The position numbers were made by a program, and so were the translations under genes. 10,263 nt of DNA from Candidatus Hodarchaeota archaeon (lineage in GTDB: Archaea; Asgardarchaeota; Lokiarchaeia; Sigyniarchaeales; SOKP01), in assembly GCA_048887225.1 (NCBI GenBank), contig JBHLJY010000025.1, positions 27,112-37,374 on the forward strand, read 5' to 3'. Under the pieces are notes generated by a model that saw nothing but the letters and a program-made list of their open reading frames with translations, was not told the DNA's origin and did no database searches. Numbering within the stretch: position 1 is the stretch's first letter; every line of letters begins with the position of its first letter. This document shows, in pieces, positions 2-10,263 of this stretch.

Positions 2-3000
2 CCACAAGGTGATTGGGACTCATTAGGAAACGGTTCCGTTGTAATTATTGTTTACGCTAACGATACCCTTGGCAACTTAGGTTCGGCACAAGTAACAGTA
101 AGAAAAGATATAATTGCTCCATATATTATAATAGATTCACCAGAGAATAATATTTATTATGATGATGATGATCGTCCAATGATTAATATATCTGCATACG
201 ATTCAAACTTCGATTCAATCTGGTATATCATTGGAACAATTAAAATAATGCTAGAAAATAATATAGAAGAAGAAATTGACGCTTCAATCTGGAATAGCTT
301 AAAACAAGGGGAATTTTACGTTTATATTTACGCTAATGATACTCTTGATAACGTTAATGACACTTACGTGTTAATGTTATTTAAAGACACTTTAGCTCCT
401 ATATTAACAATTAATTCTCCAAATAATGGGAGTTATTATAATTATCAACCCATCATCAATGTAGCTGCCTTTGATCCGAATTTAGATGATATCTGGTATC
501 GAGTTAGCCAAGATCTAAATATAATAGGGCAAAAAATATTAGATAATAACAATACGGATGAGCCATTAAGACTAAATATTTGGGAAGGATTGGGGCAAGG
601 AGATTTTCAAATTGAATTTTGGGCAACTGATACTTTCAATAATATCAGCGACACTATTATTTTTAGCTTATATAAAGACACATTAGCACCAAAAATAGAG
701 ATTAATTCACCCAATAACCTGACTTATTGGAACACACCACCATCTATCAATGTTTCTGCCTTTGATCAAAAAATAAGTCAAATATGGTATAGAGTTTATT
801 CGACACTTACCGATTGGAGTGCTAATATAACGCTTATAAATAATACGGAAAAGTCATTTAATACTACTATCTGGAATAGCTTGGAACAAGGAGCTTTTCA
901 AATTTATTTTTATGCTAATGATTCCCTTGGGAATATGAGTGAAATTTCTATTTTAACTTTATACAAAGATACATTAATTCCTGAAATCACAATTAACTTA
1001 CCTATTAACGTGACTTTATGGAATACACCTCCGCCAATTAATATATCCGCTTCCGATCAGAAATTAAATAAAATTTGGTATAGAGTTCACATGGTATTTA
1101 ATAATTACTGGAGTGGTAATATAACGCTGACAAATAATACAGAACAGTTTTTTAACATTTCAATATGGTTATTCAGCTTACCGCAAGAATGTGAATTCCA
1201 GATTTTTATTTACGCTAATGATTCCGTAGGTAACATAAATGATATTTATGTATTAACTTTATATAAAGATGTTATAGCTCCAAGAATTACAATTGATGAA
1301 CCTGATCCGTACGATTTATTTGGAACTATAGAACCTAATTTTGATATTGTAAATGAAGATGCTAATTTAAATTCTTCATGGTATATATTAATTAATGAAA
1401 CAAATCCATTGGATCGTACAAATAAATATATATTGACAGGAGAAACTGGTACTATAAACCAAGCAGGATGGAACAGGTTTGAAAACGGTACAATAATAAT
1501 TAGATTTTATGCAAACGATACTTTAGGAAACGAGACTTATAGAGAAGTAATCGTTCGCAAAGATATTTATGCACCATTAATTACGATTTCTAATCCTGAT
1601 ATGTACGATGTATTTGGAATCATCGCCCCTAATTTCACCATATACATTGATGGTCCAGTGAATATGAGATGGTATTCGATATATAACGGATCTGATTGGT
1701 CAGAAAACTTCACTATTGCTGGAGAATTCGGTACAATAGAAGGAACAATCAACCAAACGGCATGGGATAGATGTGGAAACGGCACAGTTATAATTAAATT
1801 TTACATAAATGATACAGTAGGAAATATAGGATTCGCCTTTGTCACAGTAAGAAAAGACATATTTGCTCCTATGATTACGATTAATTTGCCAGAACTTAAT
1901 GTTTGGTTTAATAGCCCACCAACACTTAATGCCGAATGTTTTGATCCTAACTACCATACCTTATGGTATAGAGTCTATTCATCATCTTTAGGGTGGAGTA
2001 ATAATATAACATTAATGAATAACACAGATCAACTGCTTGATGGAGATATATGGAATTGGTTGGGGCAAGGAGAATTTAGAATTTATTTTTACGCTAACGA
2101 TACTGCTGGTAATCTTAACGAAACTTACCTAATATCATTTAAAGACACACGTGCGCCTAATCTTATAGTTAATTCACCCGAAGACGGATTATATTATAAT
2201 ACTCCTCCTCTTATCATTTGGTCTGCTTACGATCCAAATTTAGATGATGTCTGGTATTCTGTACCTGGTTTTGTTCCAATAGAATATCTTGAAAATAATA
2301 ATACAGAAGCTTTAAATGATACTTACTGGGAAGATTTAGATCAAGGAATGTTTCAAATAAATATTTACGCTGTGGATAGATTCAATAATGTTAGTTACCA
2401 AATTATAACATTATACAAAGATACGAGAGCACCTACTATAATAATTAATTCACCAGAAAATTTATCATATTGGAAGACAGCACCAATATTGGATATAATC
2501 GCCTATGATCCTAATTTAAATACTACTTGGTATGGGAACGGGACCCATAATTTCACTCTAACGTATATTGGACAAGAACTTGAGGCTTCAATATGGGATA
2601 ACTTACCACAAGGACCATTTATAATATATATTTACGCCAATGATACTTTCGGTCATATCAATGACATATTTCTTTTAATCTTATATAAAGATACAATAAT
2701 TCCTGAGATAACAATTATTTTACCTAGAAACGAATCGTATTGTAGGGTACCAATAGATATACATGTATCCGCATCTGATACAAACCTAAATACAACGTGG
2801 TATAGAGTTTATTCATCGTTTCTTGATTATTGGAGCGATATAATAACGCTAACAAATGATCAAGAACAGATGCTTAGTGCATCAATATGGAATATCTTAC
2901 CAGATGAAGAACCATTTCAAATATATATTTACGCTAACGATTCAGCCGATAACATAAATAATATTTATGCATTAACTATATATAAAGATGTTATCGCTCC

Positions 3001-4714
3001 AAGAATTACCATTAATATTCCTCACACAAATGATTTATTTGGAGCCAACGCTCCAGGTTTTGATATCACGATTATCGAGCCTAATTTAAACGCTACATGG
3101 TACTATTTAGTAAACACAACAAATCCGTCAGCTTTTACCGCTAACTACACATTTGTATATTTAACAGACTTTACAATTTTACAGAGCGTATGGGAACAGA
3201 TGGAAAATGGAACCGTAACGATTTACTTTTACGCAAACGACTCTGCAGGCAATATTGGGTTTAATGATATAACCGTTAGAAAAGATATTATTGCCCCTCT
3301 CATTATAATTAACCAACCCGAACAAACCGAGCTTTTTGGAGCTGACGCTCCGGATTTTGATATTACTATTGTCGAGCCTAATTTAAACGATTCATGGTAC
3401 TACTTAGTAAACGCAACAAATCCATCAGACTTTACCGCTAACTACACATTTGTATATTTAACAGACTTTACAATTTTACAGAGCGTATGGGAACAGATGG
3501 AAAATGGAACCGTAACGATTTACTTTTACGCAAACGACTCTTCGGGCAATAGTGGATTTAATGATATAACCGTTAGAAAAGATATTTATGCTCCAATAAT
3601 TACAATTATTGAACCTACTTCACTTGAATTTTATGGCATCAATGCCCCAACTTTTGAGATATCTATAAGTGGGATAGATATAAATACTACTTGGTATGTT
3701 TTAGTTGGCAACACAACTAAACATAAATTTACAGAAACGACTGGAACAATTAATCAATATGCATGGAACGGCTTTGGAAACGGATTTGTGAATATTCAAT
3801 TCTATATAAATGATACATCTAGTAATGAAAATTACCAGGATATATGGATCAGAAAAGATATTTCAGCACCAACTATTACGATAAATCTACCTATTAACGA
3901 TACTTATTGGGATACAGAACCACTTATCGAAGTAATCGTAATTGATAATTATGGTCCTATTAATATTGATTCTGTCTGGTATAGAGTCGGTTCAACTAAT
4001 AAATCATTAACACGTCAATCGCCAACAACTTGGAGCGAATTGTTTGATGGTTTGATATGGAATAACCTACCAAATGAAGGACTATTTCAAATTTACATTT
4101 ATGCAGAGGATTCTGTCGGGAATGTTAATGATACATATATGTTAACTTTATATAAAGATATTATTGCTCCAAGAATTACGATAGAATTACCAAATGAAGG
4201 TGATATAATTGGAAGGACGTCTCCTTTTTTTAATATTTCTATCCAAGAGGATAATAATTATACTTGTTGGTATACTATTGATGGGGGTAAAAATAATATA
4301 ACTTTCACCAAATTGGATGGAAGGATCGATTATGCTTTATGGGAAAATGTATGGGATAATTTATCCGTAAACTCTTATATTATAATCAGATTTTACGCAA
4401 AAGATATCGTTGGAAATATTAGTTATGCAGAAGTAAAAGTTATAAAGGGTTATTTTTATCAAACTATCATTGCCGATAATGGAGAAGATGATGGTGATGA
4501 TGAATCCGAAAGGAGTGAAATTTTATTTGGTCAAATTCCCCTGATTATTACTGGTATAGCAGTATGTATTATGATTCCTGTTTCTATAGCAATAAGAAAA
4601 AGTCGATTTTATCATTCTTACGAGAGAAAATATAAAAAAGCAATTAATAAGATTTTGTTTTTAGCTATATTCCTTTTAGTTCTAATCTTTTTAGCCTTTG
4701 CTTTCCATTTTTAA
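2..4714 (+). CDS. Giant membrane-anchored surface (glyco)protein with tandem Ig-like beta-sandwich repeats; 5'-partial, at least 1570 aa
   Basis: The frame of the 179..4714 ORF has no stop back to position 2 (PQGDWDSLGNGSVVIIVYANDTLGNLGSAQVTVRKDIIAP...), so Met 179 is internal. It contains 15 complete ~90-100 aa repeats plus one partial, with consensus KD-xxAPxIxIxxP...WY...IW...G...YAND(T/S)xGN...(L/V)xKD. It ends in an acidic linker (DNGEDDGDDESE) and two hydrophobic helices (4520-4594, 4652-4711) separated by a basic loop. Confidence 0.9.
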   Translation, partial: PQGDWDSLGNGSVVIIVYANDTLGNLGSAQVTVRKDIIAPYIIIDSPENNIYYDDDDRPMINISAYDSNFDSIWYIIGTIKIMLENNIEEEIDASIWNSLKQGEFYVYIYANDTLDNVNDTYVLMLFKDTLAPILTINSPNNGSYYNYQPIINVAAFDPNLDDIWYRVSQDLNIIGQKILDNNNTDEPLRLNIWEGLGQGDFQIEFWATDTFNNISDTIIFSLYKDTLAPKIEINSPNNLTYWNTPPSINVSAFDQKISQIWYRVYSTLTDWSANITLINNTEKSFNTTIWNSLEQGAFQIYFYANDSLGNMSEISILTLYKDTLIPEITINLPINVTLWNTPPPINISASDQKLNKIWYRVHMVFNNYWSGNITLTNNTEQFFNISIWLFSLPQECEFQIFIYANDSVGNINDIYVLTLYKDVIAPRITIDEPDPYDLFGTIEPNFDIVNEDANLNSSWYILINETNPLDRTNKYILTGETGTINQAGWNRFENGTIIIRFYANDTLGNETYREVIVRKDIYAPLITISNPDMYDVFGIIAPNFTIYIDGPVNMRWYSIYNGSDWSENFTIAGEFGTIEGTINQTAWDRCGNGTVIIKFYINDTVGNIGFAFVTVRKDIFAPMITINLPELNVWFNSPPTLNAECFDPNYHTLWYRVYSSSLGWSNNITLMNNTDQLLDGDIWNWLGQGEFRIYFYANDTAGNLNETYLISFKDTRAPNLIVNSPEDGLYYNTPPLIIWSAYDPNLDDVWYSVPGFVPIEYLENNNTEALNDTYWEDLDQGMFQINIYAVDRFNNVSYQIITLYKDTRAPTIIINSPENLSYWKTAPILDIIAYDPNLNTTWYGNGTHNFTLTYIGQELEASIWDNLPQGPFIIYIYANDTFGHINDIFLLILYKDTIIPEITIILPRNESYCRVPIDIHVSASDTNLNTTWYRVYSSFLDYWSDIITLTNDQEQMLSASIWNILPDEEPFQIYIYANDSADNINNIYALTIYKDVIAPRITINIPHTNDLFGANAPGFDITIIEPNLNATWYYLVNTTNPSAFTANYTFVYLTDFTILQSVWEQMENGTVTIYFYANDSAGNIGFNDITVRKDIIAPLIIINQPEQTELFGADAPDFDITIVEPNLNDSWYYLVNATNPSDFTANYTFVYLTDFTILQSVWEQMENGTVTIYFYANDSSGNSGFNDITVRKDIYAPIITIIEPTSLEFYGINAPTFEISISGIDINTTWYVLVGNTTKHKFTETTGTINQYAWNGFGNGFVNIQFYINDTSSNENYQDIWIRKDISAPTITINLPINDTYWDTEPLIEVIVIDNYGPINIDSVWYRVGSTNKSLTRQSPTTWSELFDGLIWNNLPNEGLFQIYIYAEDSVGNVNDTYMLTLYKDIIAPRITIELPNEGDIIGRTSPFFNISIQEDNNYTCWYTIDGGKNNITFTKLDGRIDYALWENVWDNLSVNSYIIIRFYAKDIVGNISYAEVKVIKGYFYQTIIADNGEDDGDDESERSEILFGQIPLIITGIAVCIMIPVSIAIRKSRFYHSYERKYKKAINKILFLAIFLLVLIFLAFAFHF
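110..4450 (+). repeat. Array of 15 complete Ig-like coding repeats (~270-300 nt each)
   Basis: Units start right after each KD codon pair at 110, 389, 680, 971, 1271, 1565, 1859, 2147, 2423, 2693, 2990, 3287, 3584, 3860 and 4160. Confidence 0.9.
2990..3583 (+). repeat. Recent 297-bp tandem duplication (repeats 11 and 12)
   Basis: 3134-3244 and 3431-3541 are identical over 111 bp at an offset of 297. The flanks are similar but diverged. Confidence 0.95.
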
Positions 4715-5041: not shown

Positions 5042-5803
5042 TTAAATATTATTTCGGGAGTTGGGGATTCCAGAAAAATAATTTTTATGTGTTAATATTA
5101 CCGTAAAGATCTCGCAGCCTTCAGCATATGTTGTTATATCCATATAAACAAGTTTAGGATCTGATTCATCCAATAAAACACCATCAGGTGTATAACTACT
5201 ATGAGCAAGTATTGGATTATTACAATCATATAATCGGAAAGTACCTGTCCAGATATCAGGGTGACAACCACAGCCACCACTTTCTGGAGGTAATGGCCAA
5301 TGGGTTACAGAGTAAGTTTCTACCCAATCTATATACAATTTGGCACCATCTAGAGGACACCAATGATCATTAACCCATTGCTCTAATTCGACCAATGAGT
5401 AATCAAGTTCGTAATTACCATAAACAGCGGCTTCAATAGTTAAGTCGCCAACATTATTTTCATCAATATTGTAAGGTAAGATTTGTGTTATTGTACCATC
5501 ATCTTGTTTAACTCCGAAATTCTTAAGCTTGATTGATCCTGCTTCAACTAAAAAGCCGCCGATCCTGTCTTCTTCCGGTACTAACACGGTCTTATTGTTT
5601 CCAGAATTTTCTGATAATGGAAATGATTGTTCCGAAATAGCGTTTTCCACCACATTGGATTTCCTTGTAGTTTCAATTTGAACGCTATTATTTGACCCCA
5701 TAACTCCCATGACAAATGCCACGAAAATAACAACAACTGCGATTGAGATAAGAATCCCAGCAATAGTCTTAGAATCACTTTTATCGCTGTTATCAGTTAC
5801 CAT
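5042..5803 (-). CDS. Hypothetical membrane-anchored protein, 253 aa (N-terminal TM; Cys/His-containing C-terminal domain)
   Basis: TM segment TIAGILISIAVVVIFVAFVMGVMG, a polar S/N linker, then a globular region with HWC, GGCGCHP and two more Cys. SD-like GTGAT at 5817-5813 and an in-frame upstream stop at 5849-5851. No family recognised. Confidence 0.8.
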   Translation of the reverse strand: MVTDNSDKSDSKTIAGILISIAVVVIFVAFVMGVMGSNNSVQIETTRKSNVVENAISEQSFPLSENSGNNKTVLVPEEDRIGGFLVEAGSIKLKNFGVKQDDGTITQILPYNIDENNVGDLTIEAAVYGNYELDYSLVELEQWVNDHWCPLDGAKLYIDWVETYSVTHWPLPPESGGCGCHPDIWTGTFRLYDCNNPILAHSSYTPDGVLLDESDPKLVYMDITTYAEGCEIFTVILTHKNYFSGIPNSRNNI

Positions 5804-5953: not shown

Positions 5954-6475
5954 CTATGAATATAAAGAAAAATCGAAATCGGAAACAAATTGTTTAGATG
6001 ACATTTCTTTTCCCGAGCAAAACTCTTTTAATATTATTGTACTAAAAAGAAAACAGGAATATAATTTACGAATTCTTTTAAAAATAGAATTTTTTGAAAT
6101 TATTCCATCTTTTTTAAGAAATATTTGTTCGCTTATTTCGTATTTATAATTTTGGGCATCAATTCGAAAATAAATTTCTTTATTAATAAAATACTTACGT
6201 AAAAATGCAAAAAATTGAATTTTATCATTGTTTTTTAGTGAATCAAAAGTTTTAATTTCTTTTTTTGGCATTTGCGTTTGTAATGATAATATTATAGAAT
6301 CTTTATCCTTAAGTTTAAAAATAGTCATTCTATTACCTTTTGATCTTGGAGGATAAGAAAATATGAATCCAAATTCTAATTTAGAATCAGGATCAGGTAT
6401 TTTTTCTCTTAAAATCCCCTCATCTAACAAGTATTCTCGGATTAAATGCTCAATTTTACTTTTTTTCATTGACAC
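5954..6475 (-). CDS. DUF2299-family protein (conserved archaeal, function unknown)
   Basis: The N-terminus IREYLLDEG...EFGFIFSYPP, the later ISEQIF..DGIISKN.IFKRIRKL segment and the ~170 aa size resemble DUF2299 as recalled. The track start is GTG at 6475; ATG at 6469 is an alternative. Confidence 0.7.
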   Translation of the reverse strand: MSMKKSKIEHLIREYLLDEGILREKIPDPDSKLEFGFIFSYPPRSKGNRMTIFKLKDKDSIILSLQTQMPKKEIKTFDSLKNNDKIQFFAFLRKYFINKEIYFRIDAQNYKYEISEQIFLKKDGIISKNSIFKRIRKLYSCFLFSTIILKEFCSGKEMSSKQFVSDFDFSLYS

Positions 6476-6790: not shown

Positions 6791-8803
6791 TTGATTAAGA
6801 TGGTATTGAATTTGCAAGAGGTTGGTGGTATTGAGAAGGCAACCATGGAAAAGATGAGAGCCATGGGAATAGATTCAGTTGAAAAACTAGCTTCAATCAA
6901 ACTTGAAAATTTATTGAAAATTAGTGGCATTGACAAATCTACGGCGATTAAATATATAACGAACGCTAATAAATTACTTGAAGAAATAAAAGACGACGTA
7001 ATTTCCAAAGGAGAAGAGCCAATTAGCAAAAAAGGAATTTTTGAAGATATTACTCCTATACAAGAACCAAAATTTCGAATTCCTAAAGGAAAAGAACCAA
7101 TAGACAACAAAGCAGTTTTTAAAGATATCACTTCTACGCAAGAACCAAAATTTCGAATTCTTAAAGTAAAGCAACCAAATGATAACAAAGCAGTTTTTGA
7201 AAAAAAAGTATCCTCTAAAGGAGAGATGCCACTAGATAAAAAAGTAAGAAGCCAATTGATAAAAAAATATTTAAGGAATATGCAAGAACCAAAGTTTCGG
7301 ACTCCTAAAGTAAAGGAGTCACACGATACAAAAATAGTTATTGAAAAAAAAGTTTTCCGTAAAGGAAAGGAGCCAATTGATAAAAAAGTAATTATTAAAA
7401 GAAAAGCCCCTTCTAAGTACAAAAAAATTCCTGAACAGTATAGTCCCTCTAAAGCAAAACCAATTAGAGAGGAAATACCTTCAAAAAAAAAACCTAAAAA
7501 GAAAAAAATTCAAGACACATTTTTTCCTCAAGAAATAATGCAAAAAATTCGGTTTTTACATTTTAAAATTAAGCATTTAGAAGAATTTTTACTAAAAGAA
7601 CATGAAGATATTGAATTAGAAGAGCTCAATTATGTATGGGATTATATAAAACTTTTAAATGTCAATTATAAAATTCAAAGTCAAATAAAGATTTTTAAAG
7701 AATTAGATCTTACAACGACCTTTTATGATCCTATTGAAAATAAATATATTAATATATGGGACATAATGTTTGAGTGTACTCGAGTGTTATGGGTGTTAGC
7801 AAGAGTCTATGCTCAACTTTCTGAAAAATATGAACTAGAGAACAATTTGAAAAACGCAACAATTTCGATGGTAGAATGTAGTAAAGCTTATAAAACTGCG
7901 GCACATTTTAGTGCTGCATGTACTCGTCAAGAAGATAAGGGGTTGTCCTTATCTTTTGACAATCTTGAATTGAATTCTGAAGAGGCCCGAATATTTGCCC
8001 AGAGCCTTGCTGCTACAAGAGAAGAAAATAAGAAAAACTTTTTTCTTGCGTCTAAAATGTATGCAGGTTTGAGTGCTTTATCAAAAAGATTGTCATATTT
8101 AAAGGAAAATGATAGCATAAGGAATTATCAATTAAGAGCTCAATCTAATTATGATCTAGGCAAAGCATATAATTTAAAAGCCACTGCAATATTAAAAGAT
8201 TCAGATTTAAATGAAAACGGAGAAAATATTAAGAGACTACGTCAAAAAGCTAACTATCTTTTCTCTAAGGCGGAGGGACTTTGGGAATTCATACGAGATA
8301 ATTTCAATGAACTTTCAAAAAGAGAATTGAATAATATAAGGATTAATTTATCTATTGTTAATGAAGATATTATTGAAAACGATGTAGAGATTCCAGATTT
8401 CGATAAAATTAAAGATATTGAAGAAATTGAGCCATTTATAGCAGTTCCGGAAAATGTAGCGCCTATTGTACCAAGAACTACAATGTATTTAACAAGCTAT
8501 GGTCCTAGAAATCTTGAATTTAATACATTCAAAGAATTTAAAAAGAAGAAATTAGAAACGAATTTTCGTTTAAGCAAAATAGAGAAATTACAAAATAAAA
8601 AAGCAGGAATCGGGCGAGTAATTAAAGAATTAAAAATATTAAATGAAAACAATGACATTGATATAAACACGTTTATTGAACTTTTGGAAAAATACTCGAT
8701 TGAACTCAAAATGGTTGAAAGCGCCATCGATAAATTAAAAAATCCTGATGAGAAGGCCAAAACGGTTAATAGCCAATTTAATAATATTACCGTGAAAAAA
8801 TAA
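6791..8803 (+). CDS. Multidomain protein: HhH (RadA-N/HHH_5-like), K/P-rich repeat linker, BRO1-like domain and C-terminal steadiness-box-like hairpin
   Basis: LQEVGGIEKATMEKMRAMGIDSVEKLA...LLKISGIDKSTA is a tandem HhH. aa ~241-570 align by eye with the BRO1 consensus and aa ~594-651 with the TSG101/Vps23 steadiness box. The track start is TTG 6791; ATG 6800 is an alternative. The CDS and HhH calls are secure; BRO1 and SB are inferred. Confidence 0.75.
   Translation: MIKMVLNLQEVGGIEKATMEKMRAMGIDSVEKLASIKLENLLKISGIDKSTAIKYITNANKLLEEIKDDVISKGEEPISKKGIFEDITPIQEPKFRIPKGKEPIDNKAVFKDITSTQEPKFRILKVKQPNDNKAVFEKKVSSKGEMPLDKKVRSQLIKKYLRNMQEPKFRTPKVKESHDTKIVIEKKVFRKGKEPIDKKVIIKRKAPSKYKKIPEQYSPSKAKPIREEIPSKKKPKKKKIQDTFFPQEIMQKIRFLHFKIKHLEEFLLKEHEDIELEELNYVWDYIKLLNVNYKIQSQIKIFKELDLTTTFYDPIENKYINIWDIMFECTRVLWVLARVYAQLSEKYELENNLKNATISMVECSKAYKTAAHFSAACTRQEDKGLSLSFDNLELNSEEARIFAQSLAATREENKKNFFLASKMYAGLSALSKRLSYLKENDSIRNYQLRAQSNYDLGKAYNLKATAILKDSDLNENGENIKRLRQKANYLFSKAEGLWEFIRDNFNELSKRELNNIRINLSIVNEDIIENDVEIPDFDKIKDIEEIEPFIAVPENVAPIVPRTTMYLTSYGPRNLEFNTFKEFKKKKLETNFRLSKIEKLQNKKAGIGRVIKELKILNENNDIDINTFIELLEKYSIELKMVESAIDKLKNPDEKAKTVNSQFNNITVKK
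7007..7390 (+). repeat. Degenerate coding repeats (QEPKFR x3; KGxEPIDxK-type x4) in the linker of the 670-aa protein
   Basis: CAAGAACCAAA(A/G)TTTCG occurs at 7061, 7139 and 7283 (offsets 78 and 144). 7139-7246 and 7283-7390 encode paralogous 36-aa blocks. Confidence 0.9.
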
Positions 8804-8920: not shown

Positions 8921-10263
8921 ATGTCTAAAAAACATGTAGTTTTTCTTAATGCTATTAAGAAATTTTGGTTTTTTCTAGTAATTGGAGTAGTACTCATAAT
9001 CTTTCTATTTAATAGAGAAATTTCAATATGGATTACGATTATTTTCTTGATAGCATTAATTTCATTTTATTTACCGTCTCTTTCATTTAAATCTAGATTA
9101 ATTCGATTTATGAATAAATATAATACAATCGAGGATAAAACGGTTGCTCTAAACTTTAAGCTCCCATTAGAGGATATTAAAGAAAAAATGAATAAATTGT
9201 ATAAAAGTCAGAAAAGGAAAAATTGGCTTATTATATTTTCAACCGATCGCTATATTTTCTTTCGGCAGGACACTATTAGAAAATTTAAAGAACTCTATTA
9301 TAATGGATACAATGAAAAACAAATTTTCGAAAATTTGAAAAAAGATATAAATATTAGGACTAGAGCTGAAATTAAAGTTATAATAGATACATTAAATAAT
9401 CTAAATAAACTCAAAGATATTAAAAAATTAAGAGAAGTAGCGGCCGCAAAACCGAAAAAAGCACCAAAACTGAAAAAAGCACTAAAACTGAAAAAAGCAC
9501 CAAAACTGAAAAAAGCACCAAAACTGAAAAAAGCACCAAAACCTAAAAAAGCACCAAAACCGAAAAAACTGCCAAAACCTAAAGAAATCGAGATAGAAAT
9601 GGCATTAAAAAAAGCGGACAAACTTCACATAAAACTAATGAGATTAGATAACAAATGGCAAAAACTTGACGAAAAATATCCGAAAGATTTAGAGAAAATT
9701 CAACAACACGGTGAGCCAATTCTAGAAGAAATGATGCAATATATTGACGAAATACAAAAAATAAATATAAAATCTTTAGCAGCAAAAAAAATAATCGATA
9801 GTTGGATTCGCACATATCAATCACGAAAGGTTGCTATTGAAGAATATCGAAAAAAGCGAAAAGAAGTTTTTAAAGATATATATAGTGAATCACATGAAAT
9901 AGAACAACAGCAACTAATTGAAAGGGCAACTCTTATCAAGCCTAAGGTACCAGGTGTTCCTAAAGTCGCTAAAAAAACAATTAAACCAATTGAAATAGCT
10001 ACTCTTGTCAAACCTAAGGTACCAAAAGCTAAAAAACCAATTAAATCAATTAAAATAGATGAGAAACAGCAATCTACATATGAAAAAGTGGATTTGGCTC
10101 AATATATAAAAAAAATTTCAAAAATTTCTATAAATCTAGAAGATCAAAAGCAAAATGAAATAACTATCACTTCAGATTTATTAGACGACAATGGGGAATT
10201 AATTCAAAGAGGATGGTCTCGAAAACCAATTCTAAATTACAATCGGGAAAAAATTAAAGCTGG
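8921..10263 (+). CDS. 3'-partial membrane protein (at least 447 aa): 2 TM, winged-helix-like region, K/P repeats, MIT-like domain and DUF2804 N-terminus
   Basis: Translated by hand: MSKKHVVFLNAIKKFWFFLVIGVVLIIFLFNREISIWITIIFLIALISFYLP... stays open to the window edge. It is absent from the track, presumably because it has no stop in the window. Strong SD. The final segment QNEITITSDLLDDNGELIQRGWSRKPILNYNREKIKA (from 10151) matches the recalled DUF2804 N-terminal pattern QxEIT...LLDxxGxL...GW(A/S)RxP.L.YNR..IKA. Confidence 0.88.
   Translation, partial: MSKKHVVFLNAIKKFWFFLVIGVVLIIFLFNREISIWITIIFLIALISFYLPSLSFKSRLIRFMNKYNTIEDKTVALNFKLPLEDIKEKMNKLYKSQKRKNWLIIFSTDRYIFFRQDTIRKFKELYYNGYNEKQIFENLKKDINIRTRAEIKVIIDTLNNLNKLKDIKKLREVAAAKPKKAPKLKKALKLKKAPKLKKAPKLKKAPKPKKAPKPKKLPKPKEIEIEMALKKADKLHIKLMRLDNKWQKLDEKYPKDLEKIQQHGEPILEEMMQYIDEIQKINIKSLAAKKIIDSWIRTYQSRKVAIEEYRKKRKEVFKDIYSESHEIEQQQLIERATLIKPKVPGVPKVAKKTIKPIEIATLVKPKVPKAKKPIKSIKIDEKQQSTYEKVDLAQYIKKISKISINLEDQKQNEITITSDLLDDNGELIQRGWSRKPILNYNREKIKA
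9449..9583 (+). repeat. 18-bp tandem repeat, 7.5 copies, encoding K(P/L)KKAP
   Basis: Consensus AAACTGAAAAAAGCACCA. Units read KPKKAP KLKKAL KLKKAP KLKKAP KLKKAP KPKKAP KPKKLP KPK; units 3-5 (9485-9538) are identical. Confidence 0.97.
9926..10060 (+). repeat. Imperfect 2-copy coding duplication (72-nt offset)
   Basis: ATLIKPKVPGVPKVAKKTIKPIEI versus ATLVKPKVP----KAKKPIKSIKI; both copies contain CCTAAGGTACCA. Confidence 0.85.

Follow-up and report, generated by a model that had tools for sequence, protein, structure and literature searches.

The gene at positions 6800–8803 on the plus strand of the window, by which we mean the whole stretch of 10,263 nucleotides analyzed here, was found to encode a genuine member of the BRO1 domain family in a new architecture. 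The 667-residue protein (P0001; ATG at 6800, stop at 8803, with a TTG at 6791 as an alternative start) begins with a RadA-N-like helix-hairpin-helix (HhH) module (6800–6985; Pfam HHH_5 at aa 4–50, E 5.8e-6), followed by a basic, Pro-rich and repeat-containing linker (6986–7513) that has a net charge of +28, 30% K+R and three copies of a 7-residue motif, and that is probably disordered. Thereafter come the BRO1 domain (aa 239–560, 7514–8479), located by a structure model together with profile matches, and a helical hairpin (aa 588–652, 8561–8755) that is a probable ESCRT-I steadiness box (SB) of the Vps23/TSG101 core type, as judged from the model and from structure and profile searches. Used as a single query, the protein gave the HhH module at aa 4–50 as its sole Pfam match, with neither a Pfam BRO1 match nor any BRO1 match among PDB sequences. 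Searching with its C-terminal 433 residues (aa 235–667) gave 604 homologues when E<=0.001 was the limit. Over this region the best 120 were 52–71% identical, and the named sequences among those 120 were nearly all from Promethearchaeota/Lokiarchaeota. The names given to the homologues at NCBI were helix-hairpin-helix or hypothetical proteins, just as the original prediction, made from the DNA letters, had expected automated annotation to see an HhH protein only. The N-terminal extension was net positive in 122 of 122 long forms of the family.

Structure modeling and profile searches showed aa 239–560 to be a BRO1-fold domain homologous to the eukaryotic BRO1 domain. In an AlphaFold2 model of aa 239–652, made with 50 homologues in the alignment and having a pLDDT of 87.9, the domain formed a curved helical solenoid of BRO1 topology according to Foldseek, VIA and the ESM Atlas alike. 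When the model was compared with the PDB using Foldseek, the top 21 structures were all of BROX, Bro1, HD-PTP or ALIX, with E-values of 7e-6 to 7e-5, and the first fold not of the BRO1 type came at E 6e-3. VIA-align, run over 48,161 chains, placed BRO1 structures at Z 20.6–22.2 (277–294 residues, rmsd 3.9–4.7 Å) and the next unrelated fold at Z 12.0, and the ESM Atlas agreed on BRO1 with TM 0.68–0.71, its automatic name for an archaeal cluster being 'putative BRO1 domain-containing protein'. A generic TPR/alpha-SNAP solenoid, also considered for this region, was ruled out by these lists, with BRO1 structures leading both the Foldseek and the VIA results, and by the gap in Z from 20.6 to 12.0.

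Two lines of sequence evidence, both independent of the structure model, led to the same family. One homologue, P0149 (27% identical), matched Pfam BRO1 (PF03097) at E 3.2e-8 with 33.3 bits, which is under the 35.1 cut-off, with two further homologues (P0161 and P0162) giving E 1.8e-3 and 4.9e-4. A profile built solely from 22 Asgard homologues retrieved residues 87–208 of human HD-PTP at E 0.0036 using HMMER, with a hairpin-plus-helix block (7715–7822) aligned without gaps; a designed TPR protein scored slightly above HD-PTP with the same profile, on one short repeat only. Neither a 14-sequence profile nor a Heimdall-only profile found a BRO1 structure. The block just mentioned is the 36-residue stretch on which the original prediction of an archaeal BRO1-like domain had been centered. 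It extends from 7715 (aa 306) to 7822 within a single plus-strand open reading frame, and comprises, by DSSP on the model, a beta-hairpin (aa 307–310 and 315–318) and the helix following it. The other blocks proposed at that time were also collinear, at 7616, 7946, 8042, 8219, 8387 and 8444–8470, and the limits of the domain, given then as 7511–8500, had to be mended to 7514–8479.

Compared with HD-PTP/PTPN23 (3RAU, 5CRV and 5MK2), ALIX (2OEW and 3C3O), yeast Bro1 (1ZB1) and BROX (3ZXP and 3UM3), the archaeal domain has in common the solenoid, the beta-hairpin, the Pro-rich C-terminal strand and hydrophobic residues at the positions of L202 and I206, but it is only 10–17% identical to the eukaryotic domains, has Ala at the L189/F199 position and begins at about residue 19–24 of their numbering. 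The N-terminal approximately 20 residues of eukaryotic BRO1 domains, which supply the third strand of the small beta-sheet, accordingly have no counterpart. The expected boomerang shape was present in the model, but what had been anticipated as a small beta-sheet was a two-stranded hairpin only. The extended, Pro-rich strand that ends the domain (8432–8473) was clearly there, with P545, P550, E551 and P558 invariant and with structural alignments reaching model residue 319–321. Beyond this point the proteins differ, with an SB-like hairpin following the archaeal domain where eukaryotic proteins instead have a V domain, a proline-rich region, a phosphatase or a CAAX motif; the N-terminal HhH module and basic linker also set the archaeal protein apart from eukaryotic BRO1 proteins. 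A V domain with a proline-rich region was absent after the BRO1 domain, where about 107 residues remain that form one hairpin, and an ALIX/Bro1 orthologue by architecture was therefore ruled out.

ESCRT-I headpieces are assembled from a module known as the steadiness box. The C-terminal hairpin (aa 588–652), overlooked in the original prediction together with a short paralogue of wider distribution and a conserved neighboring gene with two transmembrane (TM) helices, was modeled with a pLDDT of 95, and among 60,000 Foldseek candidates the first 12 rows were ESCRT-I headpiece chains (TM 0.82–0.88, rmsd 0.7–2.8 Å), with none of the matches being significant (E>=0.07). VIA placed Vps23, CdvA and TSG101 at ranks 1, 2, 4, 6 and 7, with Vps23 first, and generic hairpins of integrase, OST1 and SMC proteins within 1 Z of the SB matches. 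In pairwise comparison using hhalign, the hairpin profile matched the SB of Znr-PH-CC-SB, listed as an Asgard SB protein in Table S2 of PMC10936438, without gaps over 61 columns (probability 94, score 38.4); none of the reversed, shuffled and BRO1-helix controls scored above 21.8. The hairpin thus resembles yeast Vps23 322–385 (2F66/2P22), TSG101 (6VME), the Asgard Znr-PH-CC-SB and the CdvA hairpin in being a two-helix hairpin of equal length and turn, but differs from ESCRT-I steadiness boxes in being joined to a BRO1 domain, with an identity of just 14–18% and no significant E-value by any single method. There was no Pfam Vps23_core match and no usable match in the Atlas or among PDB sequences, and with HMMER the hairpin profile did not recover the SB proteins of the same genome. 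Taken together, we consider it quite likely that the hairpin is an ESCRT-I steadiness box. To our knowledge, BRO1 and SB occur together in one protein in no eukaryote. The combination was also not listed in the running text of PMC10936438. A 588-aa protein encoded elsewhere in the genome (G000:C1:224312-226075, minus strand) was seen to carry a C-terminal SB-like hairpin (SB profile E 4e-5) and is a further candidate SB partner.

In HD-PTP, CHMP4 contacts L189, L202 and I206 together with the Pro-rich C-terminal region (PMC5501724). Mapped by a weak HMMER alignment having a one-residue gap nearby, these three residues correspond to A404, L416 and M420 in the helices (8009–8059) that would face a CHMP4 site, whereas the archaeal Pro-rich strand is equivalent to the CHMP4-contacting strand of HD-PTP by fold position and not at residue level. 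L416 and M420 were large hydrophobic residues in 90% and 98%, respectively, of 50 homologues and in 23 of 23 short forms, and the pair is kept in both paralogues along with the Pro-rich strand; A404, at the position of HD-PTP L189 and ALIX F199, was Ala in 42 of the 50. The hydrophobic ESCRT-III patch foreseen in the original prediction thus appears, on this weak alignment, to be only partly kept, with two of three positions hydrophobic and the third small. The genome encodes ESCRT-IIIA, ESCRT-IIIB, Vps4 and SB proteins, with the ESCRT-IIIA gene beside that of Vps4 and the ESCRT-IIIB gene elsewhere, in a gene order equal to the published row of Znr-CC-PH-SB, MetE and Vps20. The tail of ESCRT-IIIB is an amphipathic helix with almost no variation in sequence, and the Trp that anchors CHMP4 is missing from it. 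By our own reading it could equally suit the Vps4-binding MIM1 pattern, so its conservation needs no BRO1 domain as explanation. Complex prediction using aa 239–563 and a 36-residue ESCRT-IIIB tail gave a score of 0.02 and a mark of 0.32, which is no evidence either way. From these observations we would give the binding of ESCRT-III by the BRO1 domain roughly an even chance.

A second copy in the same genome has 412 residues and consists of the BRO1 domain and the hairpin only. Among 134 other genomes from the host's archaeal family, 126 contained the protein family; it was present in none of 14 genomes of the sister family, two single-contig genomes included, and overall in at least six Asgard families with divergence down to about 15% identity; in most Asgard families it was not found, even though ESCRT-III is general in Asgard. 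A FastTree phylogeny of 83 Asgard sequences, with its root placed on the Heimdall group, joined the HhH-bearing forms in one clade (support 0.999) nested among short forms, and the gene in the window is therefore a derived duplicate of the shorter BRO1-SB gene. In 19 of 20 loci the short form had an ATP-grasp gene for a neighbor, in 0 of 20 an ESCRT-III or Vps4 gene, and such genes were also absent from the surroundings of both paralogues and from about 2.5 kb around the 20 loci. Searching 400 Asgard genomes with Pfam BRO1 gave matches in four genomes, all of them sub-threshold, and the three of these proteins that were compared by hhalign showed no match to the Lokiarchaeial family (probability under 2). 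In another Asgard family we observed helical proteins of 370–410 aa with sub-threshold Pfam BRO1 matches (L041, L043 and L045), with L041 and L045 being unmatched by hhalign.

More distant relatives carry the domain in other combinations. Those of Helarchaeota (L046:553-2310, L047, L048 and L050) have an N-terminal protease domain of the MPN/JAB type, its JAMM motif apparently intact, joined to a BRO1-like domain, and this fusion constitutes a second link to ubiquitin-ESCRT biology. The Heimdall-group relatives (L049 and L051–L055) have a BRO1-like domain with a C-terminal C4 Zn ribbon and are encoded in a conserved gene row where an actin-like gene and that of a small GTPase also lie. In a relative from Ca. 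Borrarchaeum (L035:1243-2772), a BRO1-like domain is accompanied by a linker of acidic repeats and, at the C-terminus, by a domain of approximately 80 aa lacking a Pfam match. Compared at sequence level by profile–profile alignment, these relatives matched the Lokiarchaeial domain with probabilities of 96–98 over 225–241 columns, to be compared with 3 or less for reversed and TPR-like controls. In the relatives from Helarchaeota, Borrarchaeum and the Heimdall group, the L202 equivalent was polar and only the I206 position was hydrophobic.

Downstream of the BRO1 gene, on the same strand, lies the conserved neighbor (8921–10263, cut by the contig end), for which two TM helices are predicted and which also has a winged-helix-like region (about 9086–9415) and Lys/Pro repeats. 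Of 29 long-form loci, 24 had a homologue of this 2-TM gene next to them, and of 19 loci of the short clade none did. Its winged-helix-like region gave weak HTH_24 matches in 6 of 18 members, the best at 2e-4, and nothing significant when compared with the PDB. Following the Lys/Pro repeats, the copy in the window goes on to the first part of a DUF2804 domain (aa 411–446) at the contig end, either as a fusion or as an assembly artefact. With regards to the HhH module, this also heads four other proteins of the genome, including a translation GTPase, and such promiscuity means that the module alone is no proof of a DNA tether, which was ruled out as an argument here. The GTPase in question (G000:C5:8360-9979, minus strand) is aIF2-gamma-like, with 49% identity over 79 aa in its N-terminal HhH module, and at 3.4 kb from it a second 2-TM winged-helix-like gene (C5:13418-14023) was noted, without a BRO1 gene.

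ALIX binds TSG101 by a peptide and CHMP4 by its BRO1 domain. We propose, with belief and doubt in about equal measure, that the protein is an ESCRT-associated adaptor that brings BRO1 to ESCRT-III by way of an SB-placed scaffold. Its SB would associate with further SB-bearing proteins in the cell (Znr-PH-CC-SB and SB-Vps22), which would put the BRO1 domain on an upstream ESCRT scaffold, whereupon the concave BRO1 groove might take an amphipathic helix, likeliest the C-terminal helix of a Vps20/Snf7-type ESCRT-IIIB protein. The bridging of TSG101 and CHMP4 that is the job of ALIX would then be built into a single chain. The short BRO1-SB paralogue would be the core form and the gene in the window a later duplicate adding the HhH module and basic linker, which may work with the membrane-anchored neighbor and, more speculatively, be aimed at nucleic acid near the membrane. 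As a tentative wider proposal, which we consider rather doubtful as a whole, BRO1 would predate eukaryotes as an ESCRT module, Lokiarchaeia would fuse it to an SB headpiece and recruit ESCRT-IIIB in an ALIX-like manner, and the duplicate bearing the HhH module would, together with its membrane partner, couple this to nucleic acid at the membrane.

It is conceivable, if unlikely, that the SB does join an ESCRT-I-like assembly but that the BRO1 groove binds some other ligand than ESCRT-III, such as cargo or the 2-TM protein, with ESCRT-III use being a later, eukaryotic development. Such a role would agree with the Ala at the L189/F199 position, the close linkage between the long form and the 2-TM gene, the patchy distribution of BRO1 compared to the general one of ESCRT-III, and the fact that SARA and endofin helices bind to eukaryotic BRO1 grooves (PMC5501724), but not with the L202/I206 pair and Pro-rich strand being kept in both paralogues, nor with the 2-TM neighbor being absent from the short form. 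That this true BRO1 homologue has no ESCRT role, its hairpin being a generic oligomerization hairpin (SHOCT-like) and not an SB, we find improbable. The ESCRT-I chains at Foldseek ranks 1–12 and an SB profile match far above the controls argue against it, and a chance union of BRO1 and an ESCRT-I-like module in one chain would be unlikely, even if ESCRT gene linkage is lacking, the SB structural matches tie with integrase, OST1 and SMC hairpins, the HMMER hairpin profile misses the SB proteins of the genome and the Heimdall relatives lie in an actin-like/GTPase gene row. Convergence from a TPR/alpha-SNAP solenoid, or a gene from a eukaryote or contaminant contig, as could be suggested by 12–17% identity to BRO1 structures at rmsd 3.9–4.7 Å without a direct Pfam BRO1 match, is largely refuted and highly improbable in view of the Z gap, the hairpin and C-terminal strand in register, the sequence-only BRO1 matches beside TPR-like controls with hhalign probability under 2, the distribution with deep divergence, and the archaeal neighbors on the contig.

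With regards to earlier reports, Makarova 2024 (PMC10936438) gives no Asgard Bro1 and names ALIX/Bro1 as the main ESCRT component without an identifiable Asgard orthologue. Eme 2023 (PMC10307638) does report Asgard 'Bro1', like the present family in name and in the claimed role as an ESCRT-III regulator in Asgard. The four supplementary rows concerned, however, give proteins of approximately 75–180 aa, encoded by genomes of Heimdall, Njord and Thor, under PF18097. This accession is that of Vta1_C, with 38 positions, and the proteins lack the length needed for a BRO1 domain and belong to a different family. The main texts of two later structure-based Asgard surveys (PMC12962969 and PMC13734099) do not mention BRO1, though their tables might. 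Six or more Asgard families carry BRO1, joined to an SB-like hairpin, a JAMM domain or a Zn ribbon, and this occurrence points to an origin of the domain before eukaryotes, and raises the question whether BRO1–ESCRT-III binding is original or a later addition.

As for the remaining genes of the window, that at 2–4714 (plus strand) encodes a large surface protein having many Ig-like repeats, C-terminal membrane helices and abundant N-glycosylation sequons, as well as a near-exact internal duplication. The gene at 5042–5803 (minus strand) encodes a membrane-anchored protein of 253 aa that has a stretch rich in Cys and could be placed in no family with confidence. A DUF2299 gene at 5954–6475 (minus strand) is divergent from the BRO1 gene.
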